64,000 nucleotides of DNA, taken from the NCBI RefSeq assembly GCF_003334385.1, contig NZ_QOWN01000001.1; one strand, given 5' to 3'. Below are positions 24,126 through 60,066 of the stretch, one piece after another. Below the pieces are notes generated by a model. It was not told where the DNA came from, made no database searches, and saw only the letters and a list, made by a program, of their open reading frames with translations. The position numbers were made by a program, and so were the translations under genes. The stretch comes from Escherichia coli (GTDB taxonomy: Bacteria; Pseudomonadota; Gammaproteobacteria; Enterobacterales; Enterobacteriaceae). Every line of letters begins with the position of its first letter. Positions within the stretch are counted from its first letter, which is position 1.

Positions 24126-24164
24126 CAGTATTCAGGTAGCTGTTGAGCCTGGGGCGGTAGCGTG
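24126..24164 (+). promoter_or_regulatory. JUMPStart element with ops site GGCGGTAG (24153-24160) in the waaQ operon leader
   Basis: cagtattcaggtagctgttgagcctggggcggtagcgtg read from sequence about 50-85 bp upstream of waaQ; ops is the known RfaH recruitment site. Confidence 0.8.
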
Positions 24165-50606: not shown

Positions 50607-50620
50607 TGTCCTGTGATCGT

Positions 50621-50654
50621 GCCGGATGCGATGTAATCATCTATCCGGCCTACA
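50621..50654. repeat. REP (repetitive extragenic palindrome) element between convergent cysE and trmL
   Basis: gccggatgcgatgtaatcatctatccggcctaca matches the REP pattern GCCGGATGCG...CCGGCCTAC. Confidence 0.7.
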
Positions 50655-50658
50655 GTAA

Positions 50659-51132
50659 CTAATCTCTCAATACCGCTCCCGGATACCCCAACTGCCGCCA
50701 GGCTTCATACACCACTACCGACACCGCATTGGACAGATTCATGCTGCGGCTGTCCGGCACCATCGGAATGCGAATTTTTTGTTCAGCGGGCAGGGCATCA
50801 AGAATGCTCGCTGGCAGGCCGCGTGTTTCCGGGCCGAACATCAGATAATCGCCATCCTGATAGCTTACGGCGCTGTGAGCAGGTGTACCTTTCGTGGTGA
50901 GGGCGAACAGGCGCTGGGGATTTTCTGCTTCGAGGAACGCGCGATAGTCATGATGACGCGTAACGGCGGTAAACTCGTGATAGTCCAGCCCCGCGCGGCG
51001 CAGGCGCTTATCGTCCCAGGCAAATCCCATCGGTTCGATGATATGCAGACGAAAGCCGGTATTAGCGCAAAGACGGATGATGTTGCCAGTATTTGGCGGA
51101 ATTTCTGGTTCGTAAAGTACGATGTTTAGCAT
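50659..51132 (-). CDS. trmL: tRNA (cytidine/uridine-2'-O)-methyltransferase TrmL
   Basis: 157 aa SPOUT-family protein, [27 protein letters not shown]. Confidence 0.92.
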
Positions 51133-51180
51133 ACTGCCCCCTTAGTGCGGGGGCAGGATAGCAGAAAATTGGTGAGCAGT

Positions 51181-51325
51181 GCGGCCTTTTCCCCTCACCC
51201 CGGCCCTCTCCCCGGAGGGGCGAGGGAGAAAAAAAGAGTGCGGTGTCGTTTCAGAGTGAGGGAGTACATACAGCGCCGAACGGTCCCCTCTCCCTGAGGG
51301 AGAGGGTTAGGGTGAGGGGGCGCAA
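51181..51325. repeat. GC-rich composite palindromic intergenic repeat (nested ccctctccc / gggagaggg and cccctcaccc / gggtgagggg arms), possibly box C-like
   Basis: Nested inverted repeats read from sequence between lldD and trmL; family name is uncertain. Confidence 0.55.
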
Positions 51326-51329
51326 ACGA

Positions 51330-52520
51330 CTATGCCGCATTCCCTTTCGCCATGGGAGCCAGTGCCGCAGGCAACTCTTTACCCAGCCCCTGCACCAGCG
51401 AATCTTGCGTAATTTCGCTGATCGATTTCGCGCCAGTCAGCGTCATCGCCACTTTCATCTCTTTTTCGATCAGATTTAGCAGGTTAGCTACACCCGCCTG
51501 GCCCGCTGTTGCCAGCGCATACAAGAAAGCACGACCCAGCAGTACGGTGTCGGCACCGAGCGCAATCATACGCACGACATCAAGCCCGTTACGAATTCCG
51601 CTATCCGCCAGAATGGCTATATCACCTTTCACCGCATCTGCAATAGCAGGCAGTGCACGGGCGGAAGAGAGTACACCGTCCAGCTGGCGGCCACCGTGGT
51701 TAGAAACCACAATTCCATCAGCACCAAAACGTACTGCATCGCGCGCATCTTCCGGATCGAGGATCCCTTTGATCACCATCGGGCCATCCCAGAAATCGCG
51801 GATCCATTCAAGGTCTTTCCATGAGATGGACGGATCGAAGTTATTCCCCAGCCAGCCGATGTAATCTTCCAGTCCGGTCGGTTTGCCGAGATAAGCTGAG
51901 ATATTACCTAAATCATGTGGACGACCGTTCAGGCCCACATCCCACGCCCATTGCGGATGTGTCACCGCTTGCAAGTAGCGGCGCATTGCCGCGTTCGGGC
52001 CGCTCATACCTGAATGCGCATCACGGTAGCGTGCGCCCGGTGTCGGCATATCCACGGTGAAAACCAGCGTCGAACAACCCGCTGCTTTTGCTCGCTCCAG
52101 CGCGTTACGCATAAAGCCGCGATCGCGCAGTACATAAAGCTGGAACCACATTGGGCGCTTGATGGCTGGCGCGACTTCTTCAATCGGGCAAACGGAAACC
52201 GTCGAGAGAGTAAACGGAATACCATGCGCGTCCGCCGCTTTGGCTGCCTGAACTTCGCCACGACGCGCATACATGCCACACAAACCCACCGGAGCCAGTG
52301 CCACCGGCATCGACAATTTCTCATTAAACAGCGTCGTTTCCAGGCTTAAGTCGGACATGTTTTTCAGAATACGCTGGCGCAGCGCCACTTCTGACAAATC
52401 TTCCACGTTGCGGCGCAGCGTGTATTCAGAATATGCACCACCATCCATATAGTGGAACAGGAACGGCGGCAGAATGCGTTGCGCTGCGGCGCGATAATCG
52501 CTGGCTGCGGAAATAATCAT
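51330..52520 (-). CDS. lldD: FMN-dependent L-lactate dehydrogenase
   Basis: 396 aa, [38 protein letters not shown]. Confidence 0.95.
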
Positions 52521-55249: not shown

Positions 55250-55284
55250 GCCGGATGCGGCGTGAACACCTTACTCGGCCTATA
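55250..55284. repeat. REP element downstream of yibL
   Basis: gccggatgcggcgtgaacaccttactcggcctata matches the REP pattern. Confidence 0.7.
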
Positions 55285-56195: not shown

Positions 56196-56775
56196 GAAAG
56201 GCTTTTTTTAAGCTGATTTTGGAAATCAGCTCAGTCAGTGAAAGGACCATTGTTGATCGCACAGCCTGTTGATAGCGCTGAATTTGCATTGCATACAAAC
56301 TGGAGTCTGCTGGTTCAAACTGTGGCGGCGGTGGTAACGCCGCCACGCAGTGCAGTTCACCAAAGGGTCCAAGGATTTCGTCGTCGGTAAAGGCGTACTC
56401 GTTGCCGTCGTGATTTAGCTCTTCACGCAATGCCATCAGCAGTTCCGCATCTTCGTATTCCTGGCGGTTAATGACGCCCAACCCGTAAATGAGTTTTAAA
56501 CGCACAGAAAGATCGCCCAGCGGACCATCGCCGTCGAGTAACGGTTCTACAGCATACTTCACCGCGTAATCGTCTTTGCGGAATACCTGAAGCACCAGAA
56601 GATTTACCGCCTCGGTCAGGAGCTCGACGGCGGTGATCAGAAAGCTTCGCACGGTTTTGCCAGCATTCAGACGCTCAAGCACACGGTTTTCAAAGGCCTG
56701 GGTTTGTTCCATTGTTGCCTGCATATCTGACAATCTGTTATTCGGGCGCAGGGTGTCCTGCGCCTGGTCCACCAT
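56188..56775 (-). CDS. mtlR: Mannitol operon repressor
   Basis: 195 aa, [36 protein letters not shown]. Confidence 0.92.
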   Translation of the reverse strand: MVDQAQDTLRPNNRLSDMQATMEQTQAFENRVLERLNAGKTVRSFLITAVELLTEAVNLLVLQVFRKDDYAVKYAVEPLLDGDGPLGDLSVRLKLIYGLGVINRQEYEDAELLMALREELNHDGNEYAFTDDEILGPFGELHCVAALPPPPQFEPADSSLYAMQIQRYQQAVRSTMVLSLTELISKISLKKAFQK

Positions 56776-57923
56776 TATTGCATTGCTTTATAAGCGGTTA
56801 CCGCCTCGGATACAACCTCGCTGTTGGCATCAAGACCGGAAATCTGTGCCAGCGCCGCCTGCGGACCTTTGTCAGCGATCAGTGCTGCCAGTTCCTGAGC
56901 CTGCGGATCATCTTCACTGCGGAAGTGCATTGCAGCGGCAATACCTTCAATCAGGTTTTTATGTGGCAGACCATATTCCAGCGTACCGAGCAGTGGCTTG
57001 ATCAGACGGTCGCCAGCACTCAGTTTACGCAGTGGCTGACGGCCTACGCGCTCTACATCATCTTTCAGATACGGGTTCTCAAAACGGCCGAGAATTTTCT
57101 GGATGTACGCCGCATGCTTGTCAGCGTCAAAGCCGTAGCGCTTGATCAATACTGCACCACTTTCTTCCATCGCACCTTTTACCACCGCGCGGATTTTCTC
57201 GTCGAGAATCGCGTCACGAATGGTCTGATGACCGGCCAGTTTTCCGAGGTACGCGGTTATAGCATGACCCGTGTTCAGGGTGAAGAGTTTACGTTCGACA
57301 AATGCCATCAGGTTGTCGGTTAACTCCATGCCTGGGATGTTCGGCAGTGCGCCTTTGAACTGCGTTTTATCGACAATCCATTCGCTGAAGGTTTCTACCG
57401 TCACTTCCAGCGGATCGTTAGTTGCCGAAGCCGAAGGCGGTACGATGCGGTCAACGGCGGAATCGACAAAGCCAACGTGTTCTTCTACCCACGCTTTGGC
57501 GTCTTCCGGCAGGGCGTTCATCACATGGCCTTTCAGCTGCGTGGTACCGCGTACCATGTTTTCACAGGCGATGATGTTCAGCGGGGATTCATTACCTTGT
57601 TCTTTACGTTTCACCAGCCCTTTGGCGATTGCCGGAGCAATACGTTCCAGCACAACCGGGCCAACGGCGGTAGTGACTAAATCAACCTGAGCAATCAGAT
57701 CAACGACATCATCACCAATGCTGCTGACAGCATTGACGCCGGAAACGGTATCTACCTGCTCGGTTTCACCAACCACATGTACCTGATAGCTATGACGGGC
57801 ATTCAGGGCATCAAGTACCACCTGATTGACATCGGCAAACGTCAGTTGGATACCCGCGTCTGCCAGCAGTTTACCGATAAAGCCACGACCGATATTACCT
57901 GCGCCAAAATGTAATGCTTTCAT
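56775..57923 (-). CDS. mtlD: Mannitol-1-phosphate 5-dehydrogenase
   Basis: ORF track 56775..58241 (488 aa) over-extends through the upstream repeats; start at [24 protein letters not shown] gives 382 aa. Confidence 0.93.
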
Positions 57924-57949
57924 AGTATTAACCTTCATCAATGTTTTTA

Positions 57950-58150
57950 CCCGAGAGGGCTGGGGTGAGGCTTTTCCCTCACCCAAACCCTCTCCGTGAG
58001 GAGAGGGGCAGCGCCGGATGCGGCGTAAGCGCCTTATCCGGCCTACAAGAACGTGCAAATTCAACAAATTGTGATGCATCCTGTAGGCCTGATAAGCGTA
58101 GCGCATCAGGCAATTAACCCCACCTTCTCCATGTGGAGAGGGTGGGATTG
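57950..58150. repeat. Repeat mosaic in the mtlA-mtlD spacer: two REP elements in inverted orientation (58013-58047 and 58083-58111) flanked by ccctctcc/ggagaggg and gggtgagg/cctcaccc hairpins
   Basis: Read directly from sequence; REP copies match GCCGGATGCGGCGTAAGCGCCTTATCCGGCCTACA. Confidence 0.75.
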
Positions 58151-58152
58151 GA

Positions 58153-60066
58153 TTACTTACGACCTGCCAGCAGTTCCAGCACTTCATCCACGCTGGTGGT
58201 GTGTGCCAGACGCTCGATGACGGACTCATCATCCAGTGCATTGGTCAGGCTGGTGATAACCTGAATGTGCTCGTTGTTACGGGCAGCAATACCAATCACC
58301 AGACGGGCAATGTCATCTTCTTCTTCACCGAAGCGCACGCCTTCCGGGTACTGGCAGAACACGACGCCCGTTTTCAGTACGCGATCTTTCGCTTCAACCG
58401 TACCGTGTGGCACCGCGATAGACTCACCCAGATAAGTCGGGGTCAGTTTTTCACGATCCAGCATCGCCTGAACGTATTCCGGCTCAACGTAACCGCCTTT
58501 CACCAGCTGCTCGCCAGCAAAACGAATCGCTTCTTCTTTGGTTGCCGCTTTGCGACCGAGGAAGATGTTCTCCGCGCCTAGCTTGAACAGGTTAGCACTG
58601 GAATCGTCAAAGCTGTCTTTCAGGCTGTCTTTTACTTTCTCTTCGTTTGCCGTGTGGCGTTGGGCAGCAACCAGACGTTCGGTCAGGCTGGTGTACAGGC
58701 CGCTGTCGAGGAAGTTGGTCAGCGAAATATGCTGTGCCTGCGGAACCTGGCGCATAGCGCGTTCGGTCAGGTCACGGTGAGTGATGACGAGGTCCACATC
58801 TGGCGGCAGGTTGTTGATCGCGCTGTTAGTAACAGAAATCTGCGACAGACCTGCATCCTGAATTTTCTTACGCAGAACGCCTGCGCCCATCGCACTGGAA
58901 CCCATACCGGCGTCACAGGCAACGATGATTTTACGTACGTGGCTCAGGTCGTTAGTCACATCGCCAGCAGACAGCGGAGATGCGCCTTTAGACTCAGCTT
59001 TCATGTCCTGCATACGACGAGTTGCTGCTTCAATATCATCTTCTTCTTTCACTTTGCTGGTTTTCAGCAAAATAGCAGAGACAACGAAGGAGACAGCCAT
59101 CGCCGCACACACACCCGCGATGTTAGCGAAGTAAGCACCTTTTGGTGTCATCGCCAGTACAGCAAGGATAGAACCCGGAGACGCCGGAGAAACCAGACCA
59201 CCGCCCAGGATAGTCAGCGTGAACACGCCAGTCATACCGCCGAGGATGACTGCGAGGATCAGACGCGGATTCATCAGCACATACGGGAAGTAGATTTCGT
59301 GGATACCCCCCAGGAAGTGGATGATTGCCGCACCGCCCGCAGACTGTTTAGCGCTACCACGACCAAAGAACATGTACGCCAGCAGCACGCCCATACCTGG
59401 ACCTGGGTTAGCTTCAATCAGGAAGAAGATTGATTTACCCAGTTCATGGGACTGCTGAATACCCAGCGGCGAGAAGATACCGTGGTTAATGGCGTTGTTG
59501 AGGAACAGGATTTTCGCCGGTTCAACAAAGATAGACGCCAGCGGCAGCATGTCATGGACAACCATGAAGTTAACGCCCGCAGCCAGCATTTTGGACAGGG
59601 CTTCAACAATCGGGCCAATGCCGAGGAATGCCAGAATAGCGAGGATCATCCCGATGATGCCTGCGGAGAAGTTATTCACCAGCATCTCAAAACCGGATTT
59701 GATCTTACCGTCTACCCAGCGGTCGAAGTGCTTAATGCACCAGCCGCCCAGCGGACCTGCAATCATAGAACCGAGGAACATCGGCATGTCTGCGCCGACG
59801 ATAACGCCCATGGTGGTGATGGCACCGACTACGCCGCCACGTTCGCCGCCTACCAGCTTACCACCGGTATAACCGATCAGCAGCGGCAGGAGATAAGTGA
59901 TCATCGGCCCGACCAGCTTCGCCAGCGTCTCGTTCGGTAACCACCCTGTTGGAATAAATAACGCGGTGATGATACCCCACGCGATAAACGCGCCGATATT
60001 TGGCATCACCATGTTGCTGAGGAAACGACCAAAGCTTTGCACTTTGATCTTAATATCGGATGACAT
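58153..60066 (-). CDS. mtlA: PTS mannitol-specific EIICBA component
   Basis: 637 aa, [37 protein letters not shown]. Confidence 0.95.

Follow-up and report, generated by a model that had tools for sequence, protein, structure and literature searches.

BoxC repeats in the lldD-trmL and mtlA-mtlD spacers of Escherichia coli and the probable role of their hairpins at mRNA 3′ ends

[quoted passage not shown] When transcribed, the hairpins of these copies probably define or protect the 3′ ends of the messages upstream. Both spacers lie in a 64,000-nt stretch of contig NZ_QOWN01000001.1 (assembly GCF_003334385.1), which is called the window here. The window is E. coli K-12 DNA, the reverse complement of the MG1655 chromosome around 3.77-3.83 Mb (MG1655 position = 3,832,347 minus window position), and its lldD-trmL junction is 100% identical to that of E. 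coli K-12 strains. Recognition of the family is a correct rediscovery, real but ordinary, of something already known. The current analysis makes four small additions, namely the positional agreement between BoxC hairpins and mapped RNA 3′ ends, the unusual head-to-head arrangement of the units at lldD-trmL, a degenerate BoxC pair in the mtl spacer, and an association of BoxC with the insertion sequence ISEc13.

The hairpins of both spacers belong to the BoxC family

One family has been described under three names: BoxC (Bergler et al. 1992), PIT, for potential intrastrand triplex (Hoyne, Maher et al. 2000, 2002), and TMECO (Holder et al. 2015, PMC4666352). The original MG1655 record contained 33 BoxC annotations of about 56 bp (PMC5172473). 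The TMECO consensus consists of three blocks, C-G-G, arranged as CCCTCNCCC-N3-6-GGGNGAGGG-N3-GGGNGAGGG, and 23 strict copies are listed for MG1655 (Table 1 of PMC4666352). The second loop assigns a copy to type A (TTA) or type B (CCG), and inverted pairs are composed of one A and one B unit; copy number per genome varies widely (PMC4666352).

The initial annotation of this DNA had reported related hairpin units in both spacers (51181-51325 and 57950-58150) and had treated them as an unnamed mosaic. That they form one family was confirmed when a profile hidden Markov model, built from the 23 published MG1655 copies, was run on the window: the only matches were at 51285-51318 (E = 9e-10), 51226-51192 (6e-9), 58007-57976 (0.0024), and 57953-57970 (0.2). 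The units are not unnamed, however; those of the lldD-trmL spacer are the long-catalogued nos 17 and 18 of Table 1 of PMC4666352. Pattern searches gave the same picture. The strict three-block consensus was matched at 51192-51226 (-) and 51286-51318 (+), that is, twice against 0 expected, whereas a relaxed three-block pattern with 7-nt blocks was matched three times in the 64 kb, always within the two spacers (0.00 expected). The hairpin pattern CCCTCTCC-N3-8-GGAGAGGG occurred exactly twice, once per spacer (0.00 expected), and 9-mers resembling GGGTGAGGG were also concentrated there. Moreover, when a 53-nt query around no. 17 was searched at E <= 1e-3 in 5,426 complete E. coli genomes, 42,530 matching places were found in 5,332 of them (median 9 per genome), so that the recurrence expected by the initial annotation was borne out. 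Only 40 of these places were on plasmids, and, among the matches listed, none lay under an annotated gene. No Rfam family covers BoxC at gathering thresholds, and the MG1655 RefSeq record holds no repeat features at these spacers. In permissive Rfam scans, the one notable result was sub-threshold matches to naRNA4, presumably a REP-derived family; these arise because REP elements are present.

The lldD-trmL units share with the published family their catalogue entries, the three-block consensus, the type A and B loops, the A-plus-B inverted pairing, the intergenic location, and the multi-copy state. In contrast, the mtl copy fails the strict consensus, having 8-nt blocks, loops TCAC and TTT, and a partner without a C block, and it is absent from the 23-member table. 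Like REP elements and BIMEs, BoxC is a dispersed intergenic palindrome that folds as an RNA hairpin. It differs from them in its unrelated sequence, its asymmetric third block, and its copy number of about 20-30, compared with what we take to be about 600 for REP. We know of no dedicated transposase for BoxC.

Several BoxC hairpins lie just upstream of mapped RNA 3′ ends

Two published datasets were queried for RNA 3′ ends, namely the Term-seq set of Adams et al. 2021 (PMC7815308, supplementary files 1 and 3; 3,110 curated ends, intrinsic-terminator score threshold 3) and the SMRT-Cappable-seq set of Yan et al. 2018 (PMC6131387, Supplementary Data 1). As shown by Term-seq, the primary curated 3′ end of lldD is at MG1655 3,781,065 (+), corresponding to window 51282, 4 nt after the hairpin formed by no. 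17. This end has an intrinsic-terminator score of 1.32 and lies in a significant Rho region (Rho score 1.49). In the mtl spacer, SMRT-Cappable-seq revealed a monocistronic mtlA transcript running from a transcription start site at 3,772,188 to a novel transcription termination site (TTS) at 3,774,364 / 3,774,365 (window 57983 / 57982), where the RNA ends in ...GGAGAGGGUUUGG, 5-6 nt after the BoxC-like hairpin. At this site, 14 reads ended and 0 passed in M9; in a second listing of the transcript, 28 ended and 4 passed. Published ends were thus found 4-6 nt after a Watson-Crick hairpin in both spacers.

A similar spacing was observed at other BoxC loci. Term-seq ends are found at +4 in ppiC-ilvC (3,959,467, -), at +5 upstream of mrcB (164,636, +), and at +12 in the fepB leader (624,567, -), and a SMRT-Cappable-seq end is found at +6 at the argF locus (289,240, -). 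When 46 strand-specific 12-nt windows were considered, with 3,110 ends over 9.3 million strand positions, four Term-seq ends near BoxC hairpins were counted against about 0.2 expected, the latter being a rough estimate that intergenic enrichment of 3′ ends would raise several-fold.

The folding of the spacers was also examined. The transcribed strand of the lldD-trmL spacer folds at -96.5 kcal/mol (z = -3.65) and that of the mtlA-mtlD spacer at -115.6 kcal/mol (z = -7.55), both far more stably than their shuffles, and the individual hairpins fold at -15.7 to -23.2 kcal/mol. Consensus scans of the transcribed strand of both spacers detected no terminator, defined as a hairpin followed by a U-tract, and no sigma-70 promoter. 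The initial annotation had proposed that these mosaics act as terminators or mRNA stabilisers. Its second half, a stabiliser or transcript-end role, fits the published 3′-end maps in both spacers; its first half, a canonical terminator, does not agree with the missing U-tract, the low lldD score, or the absence of reporter activity that is taken up below.

[quoted passage not shown] The BoxC loci resemble these protective 3′ stem-loops: the stem-loop is stable and no U-tract follows it, the steady-state 3′ end is found a few nucleotides further on, and, for lldD, there is Rho-dependent read-through. They differ in that the Rho score of lldD is modest (1.49) and that trimming by PNPase or RNase II is, for these two transcripts, a proposal. 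The lldD end corresponds to such a stem-loop by its position, 4 nt after a -18.4 kcal/mol hairpin, and by its significant Rho region; the mtlA end corresponds by position alone.

Taken together, these data point to the following model, in which the hairpins most likely define or protect RNA 3′ ends. Once transcribed, the C block would pair with the first G block to give a G:C hairpin of 8-9 bp that lacks a U-tract and would set the steady-state 3′ end of the upstream message by blocking exonucleases. For lldD, Rho may terminate transcription further downstream, and 3′-to-5′ exonucleases may trim the RNA back to the hairpin. For mtlA, the hairpin with its UUU may either halt exonucleases or terminate weakly. 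The levels of mtlA RNA could in this way be uncoupled from those of mtlD-mtlR, as REP elements do elsewhere; REP elements and BIMEs are known to stabilise upstream mRNA and to mark the ends of Rho-terminated transcripts. BoxC itself is probably selfish or neutral DNA, treated by the RNA machinery of the cell no differently from any other stable hairpin. BoxC has been without an assigned function for thirty years, and the positions of hairpins and 3′ ends at lldD, mtlA, ppiC, argF, and upstream of mrcB suggest a testable role of the REP type, for which natural spacer alleles (lldD-trmL, 47-197 nt; mtlA-mtlD, 94-520 nt) could be used.

Organisation and variation of the lldD-trmL spacer

As listed in the feature table below, nos 17 and 18 flank a 59-nt filler. 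Along the transcribed strand, the order is the lldD stop codon, 10 nt, the reverse complement of no. 17 (C2-TAA-C1-TCA-G1), 59 nt, no. 18 (C1-TCC-G1-CCG-G2), about 40 nt, and the trmL leader. On the plus strand, 51191-51226 reads CCCCTCACCC-CGG-CCCTCTCCC-CGGA-GGGGCGAGGG. Both units conform to the strict consensus, and the spacer combines one type A with one type B unit, as do all five MG1655 pairs. The arrangement of nos 17 and 18 is nevertheless unusual: the two units stand head-to-head, while the remaining four MG1655 pairs all have a tail-to-tail orientation and gaps of 16-27 nt (Table 1 of PMC4666352). The outer 22-nt arms of the spacer are 86% complementary across 85 nt, and its outer blocks are able to pair over 130 nt.

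The spacer is polymorphic in E. coli. Alleles were compared by direct reading, and their frequencies were taken from 30 evenly spaced rows of genomes. At least five length classes were found, of 197 nt (the K-12 type), 185, 153, 72, and 47 nt, in roughly 7, 8, 4, 3, and 7 of the 30 sampled genomes, respectively. In the 185-nt allele (L002, O111:H8), one unit of the 12-nt tandem repeat inside no. 18 has been lost; to judge by the sequence, this allele is a slippage deletion between the two repeats. The middle of the 153-nt allele is replaced by a 34-nt palindrome, and the 47-nt allele contains no BoxC. In strains with the 47-nt allele (L005, L006), the last lldD codons and stop codon also differ from window 51320-51340 (GCAGCTTAA versus GCGGCATAG) while encoding the same amino acids. 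The lldD end thus differs in BoxC-less strains, and the haplotypes must therefore be old or exchanged by recombination, rather than one clean insertion apart.

A degenerate BoxC pair joined to a REP pair in the mtlA-mtlD spacer

The segment 57953-58007 reads GAGAGGG-CTG-GGGTGAGG-CTTTT-CCCTCACCC-AAA-CCCTCTCC-GTGA-GGAGAGGG and is followed by two inverted REPs and a further hairpin. From its sequence, we consider the element to be a degenerate relative of BoxC, probably an eroded tail-to-tail pair joined to a REP pair. The A-like copy matches the relaxed pattern and not the strict one. Its B-like partner, separated from it by a gap of only 5 nt, forms with 57977-57994 an inverted repeat of 18 nt that is 89% complementary. 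The loops of the pair are TTT in the A-like copy and CTG, as in the catalogued type B copy no. 8, in its partner, which is suggestive of the A-plus-B pairing rule and no more.

The initial annotation was also right in placing the mtl copy next to a genuine REP pair, as judged by the REP consensus, the inverted repeats, and the copy number. The inverted arms of the BIME are at 58033-58050 and 58079-58096, and the mtl REP has a median of 17 matching places per genome, with at least 40 in 88 records. The BIME gave one of the sub-threshold naRNA4 matches. Its linker contains ATTCAACAAATTG, one mismatch away from what we take to be the IHF core WATCAANNNNTTR. Beyond the REPs, 58122-58142 is a diverged direct duplicate of the BoxC-like hairpin 57987-58007 (18/21 identical), and two 21-nt hairpin copies therefore bracket the BIME.

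Five alleles of this spacer were compared. In other strains, its length is 94 (L009), 228 (L010), 319 (L007), or 520 nt (L008). The 319- and 520-nt alleles carry the BIME in two and four tandem units, respectively, with a period of about 100 nt. About 5/30 sampled genomes carry the 94-nt allele, which has a single hairpin and no BIME and which either is a deletion between the hairpin repeats or represents the ancestral state. The BoxC-like segment is identical in four of the five alleles; in the fifth (228 nt), the loop is ATGT instead of GTGA. A literature search on the mtlA-mtlD intercistronic region returned nothing relevant. For annotation, the spacers should be labelled as BoxC, with a BIME in addition in the mtl spacer.

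Evaluation of alternative explanations

Several observations weigh against a role of the BoxC hairpin at RNA 3′ ends. The link between hairpin and 3′ end is positional only. At most BoxC loci, no mapped 3′ end was found in the datasets queried, in which Term-seq loci with six-digit coordinates were covered only in predicted 10-nt bins, and the SMRT-Cappable-seq tables contained no 3′ ends at six more BoxC loci; perhaps the loci without mapped ends are not transcribed. Two ends are located on the wrong side of the hairpin. The hemB TTS at MG1655 388690 (reverse) falls within BoxC no. 5, between the first C block and the hairpin, and the very abundant Term-seq end at 624680 (-) in the fepB leader (103,563 and 243,213 reads) precedes BoxC no. 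8 by 4 nt. At the lldD end itself, the hairpin of the 3′ segment, taken alone, has a z-score of only -1.5, because its flanks are equally GC-rich. In the mtl spacer, exonucleases arriving from downstream would reach the GGGUGAGG/CCUCACCC hairpin first, and the mtlA end may therefore be a true, weak termination site. Finally, according to PMC4666352, which summarises Hoyne and Maher (2002), PIT elements in reporters showed no terminator or promoter activity and had no effect on RNA polymerase. As side observations at the two loci named, 37 further reads end within 50 bp downstream of the hemB TTS, and the 50 nt upstream of 624680 fold no better than shuffles (-9.6 kcal/mol, z = +0.76).

One alternative is that the repeats are inert, selfish or neutral DNA without a role here, and that RNA 3′ ends are incidental to any stable GC hairpin and without consequence for expression. 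We regard this explanation as possible, although rather doubtful. It is supported by the wide variation of BoxC copy number between genomes (PMC4666352), by the reporter result as summarised there, and by the existence of lldD-trmL alleles without the elements (47 and 72 nt; about 7 and 3 of 30 genomes), from which it follows that the genes work without BoxC. However, two independent datasets agree in placing the 3′ ends of several loci at a constant +4 to +6, and the mtl BoxC-like segment is invariant over five alleles save for a three-base loop change in the 228-nt allele, while the adjacent BIME ranges from 0 to 4 units. A quite different proposal is that the hairpins are Rho-independent terminators that stop RNA polymerase directly. 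In its favour, the mapped ends each have a GC-rich hairpin immediately before them, and in the mtl spacer a UUU comes after the hairpin and read-through is rare (0/22 and 4/37 reads in two listings). Yet neither spacer has a terminator-like site on its transcribed strand; at lldD, the score of 1.32 falls short of the required 3.0, the end maps to a Rho termination region, and the hairpin has GACC as its tail. The PIT reporters, again as summarised in PMC4666352, were inactive as terminators. Direct termination is accordingly improbable.

Another explanation places the activity at the level of DNA, with the G-rich strand forming a purine-motif intrastrand triplex, or the pairs forming cruciforms, during replication, and with local genome instability as the main effect. 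Both lldD-trmL units fit the triplex consensus, circular dichroism and nuclear magnetic resonance show very stable triplexes for such oligonucleotides in vitro, and rearrangements are more frequent at TMECO loci than at controls (PMC4666352). The lldD-trmL spacer agrees with such variability, since it comes in at least five lengths, one of which reflects slippage that removed 12 nt from within the element. Nevertheless, no triplex signal was obtained in duplex DNA and no protection was seen in in-vivo dimethyl sulfate footprints (PMC4666352), insertion-sequence traffic, and not breakage induced by structure, accounts for part of the variability, and the mtl copy, with its 8-nt blocks, barely varies. 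We therefore consider a primarily DNA-level element unlikely. Lastly, the likeness of the spacers could be due to chance, or the mtlD frame could encode a real, N-terminally extended MtlD with PHGEG repeats, and to these ideas we attach almost no weight. Chance similarity was rejected on the basis of the pattern counts, for which zero matches are expected. The extended protein would be favoured by an uninterrupted 107-codon frame upstream of the mtlD ATG in K-12: the mechanically called open reading frame (ORF) 56775-58241 has 488 aa, compared with 382 aa for annotated mtlD (start at 57923), begins inside mtlA, and includes SPHGEGG in its translation across the repeats. In five strains, however, the open stretch amounts to 107 (K-12), 71, 54, 62, and 76 codons, with a different stop in every strain; the length of the spacer spans 94-520 nt and includes one allele with a single-nucleotide difference, and the extension overlaps the mtlA 3′ end. 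A real extension of MtlD was therefore rejected, and the view of the initial annotation that the extension across the PHGEG-like repeats is spurious agrees with the variable length and with the RefSeq start. The long mtlD ORF should be ignored in annotation.

ISEc13 at the tips of BoxC hairpins

The 34-nt palindrome of the 153-nt lldD-trmL allele (L003, E. coli YPE12), TGTCTCTTGATCAGGAGATCTGATCAAGAGACAG, is the right terminus of ISEc13, an IS4-family element; this terminus presumably resembles the inside end of IS50. Exact searches for the ISEc13 terminus identified 23 loci in species genomes (L012-L034) and 79 in metagenomes (L041-L119), and further E. coli loci were found (L011, L035, L038). 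A BoxC G block (GGNGAGG) was present within 30 nt of the junction in 19 of 58 distinct junctions, compared with 0.58% in random windows of the same loci, the junction sample being small and some junctions coming from the same genomes. Six complete ISEc13 copies have a clean 8-9-bp duplication, and each of them is inserted into a hairpin that has one C-rich and one G-rich arm, no more than 3 nt from its tip; in four cases the hairpin is BoxC. One target is a canonical type A BoxC, interrupted between GAACGGTCCCCTCGCCCCTTT and CGCCCCTTTGGGGAGAGGGTTAGGGTGAGGGG. The automatic sort also produced a solo class of 15 junctions with 33-36-nt palindromes and no IS body. This class contains at least one misfit (L078), which keeps a transposase tail and is really an IS end; several of the true solos are located at the tip of a C2-C1 ... 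G1-G2 hairpin. In the lldD-trmL spacer, the solo palindrome occurs in roughly one E. coli genome in seven. On a metagenome contig (L062), a full ISEc13 end adjoins the 185-nt lldD-trmL allele; taken with the 153-nt allele, this indicates that the spacer has been hit at least twice. L014, in which the two sides have different loops, spoke against the idea that the solo palindrome is a simple snap-back copy of the right flank, and this idea was abandoned.

On balance, we cautiously favour the interpretation that BoxC tips are a preferred, structure-specific landing site of ISEc13, which may leave 35-nt solo right-end palindromes behind and so explain, in place of triplex-induced breakage, part of the reported hypervariability of BoxC loci, including lldD-trmL, with BoxC acting secondarily as a REP-like exonuclease stop. 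IS1397 and ISKpn1 insert into the loops of BIMEs, and ISEc13 similarly appears to target the tip of a dispersed palindromic repeat. It differs from these elements in being IS4/Tn5-like rather than IS3, in its target repeat, and in leaving 35-nt solo end-palindromes. No paper on ISEc13 target choice was found, and the papers that mention ISEc13 only list it. If the preference is true, BoxC joins the BIMEs as a harmless landing site for insertion sequences, and the published statement that no association of the motif with mobile elements was seen (Holder et al., PMC4666352) needs revision.

Features of the two spacers and minor observations

Table. Positions of genes, repeats, and predicted hairpins at the lldD-trmL and mtlA-mtlD spacers (window coordinates)
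Feature	Position	Strand	Sequence or basis
trmL	50659-51132	-	gene
BoxC/TMECO no. 18, type B with one mismatch (second loop CCG)	51191-51226	-	CCCTCGCCCC-TCC-GGGGAGAGGG-CCG-GGGTGAGGGG; exact = entry 18 of Table 1 of PMC4666352, MG1655 3,781,121-3,781,156; profile E = 6.4e-9
Tandem direct repeat, 12 nt, inside no. 18	51192-51215	+	CCCTCACCCCGG / CCCTCTCCCCGG; repeat search
Filler between nos 17 and 18, 59 nt	51227-51285		sequence; replaced or deleted in other E. coli alleles
lldD RNA hairpin + 4-nt tail GACC	51282-51306	-	CCCUCUCCC-UCA-GGGAGAGGG; fold 9 bp, -18.4 kcal/mol, no U-tract
BoxC/TMECO no. 17, type A (second loop TTA)	51286-51319	+	CCCTCTCCC-TGA-GGGAGAGGG-TTA-GGGTGAGGGG; exact = entry 17 of Table 1 of PMC4666352, MG1655 3,781,061-3,781,028; profile E = 8.7e-10
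lldD	51330-52520	-	gene
mtlD	56775-57923	-	gene (RefSeq start at 57923; 382 aa)
Putative truncated B-like BoxC partner, two G blocks only, C block eroded	57953-57970	+	GAGAGGG-CTG-GGGTGAGG; profile positions 17-34, E = 0.2
Putative degenerate A-like BoxC, first two blocks 8 nt	57976-58007	-	CCCTCTCC-TCAC-GGAGAGGG-TTT-GGGTGAGGG; profile E = 0.0024, 14.5 bits
mtlA RNA hairpin, then UUUGG(G)	57982-58007	-	CCCUCUCC-UCAC-GGAGAGGG; fold -15.7 kcal/mol, z = -3.3
Spurious upstream extension of mtlD frame, through whole spacer into mtlA 3′ end	57924-58241	-	not conserved among strains
BIME, two inverted REPs around a 36-nt linker	58013-58046 + 58083-58111		exact REP consensus GCCKGATGCGRCG at 58013; inverted repeats
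Hairpin	58116-58149		CCCCACCTTCTCC-ATG-TGGAGAGGGTGGG; fold -23.2 kcal/mol, z = -4.6
mtlA	58153-60066	-	gene

At the trmL end of the lldD-trmL spacer, a leader hairpin, CUGCCCCC-GCACUAA-GGGGGCAG (window 51128-51162, -; -19.9 kcal/mol), lies over the likely ribosome-binding site just before the AUG, and a Term-seq 3′ end at MG1655 3781218 (window 51129) is located directly after it. The primer used by Adams et al. to clone the trmL 5′ untranslated region starts inside the loop of this hairpin (window 51148), and the hairpin may therefore form only in read-through RNA from lldD. More REP elements were observed in the window at 50615-50650, downstream of trmL, where a sub-threshold match to Rfam naRNA4 was obtained, and at 55250-55262, near yibL. 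The sole Rfam family above its gathering threshold in the window was the JUMPstart RNA element (RF01707), which was detected at 24126-24164 (+) with 55.2 bits (E = 6e-10).

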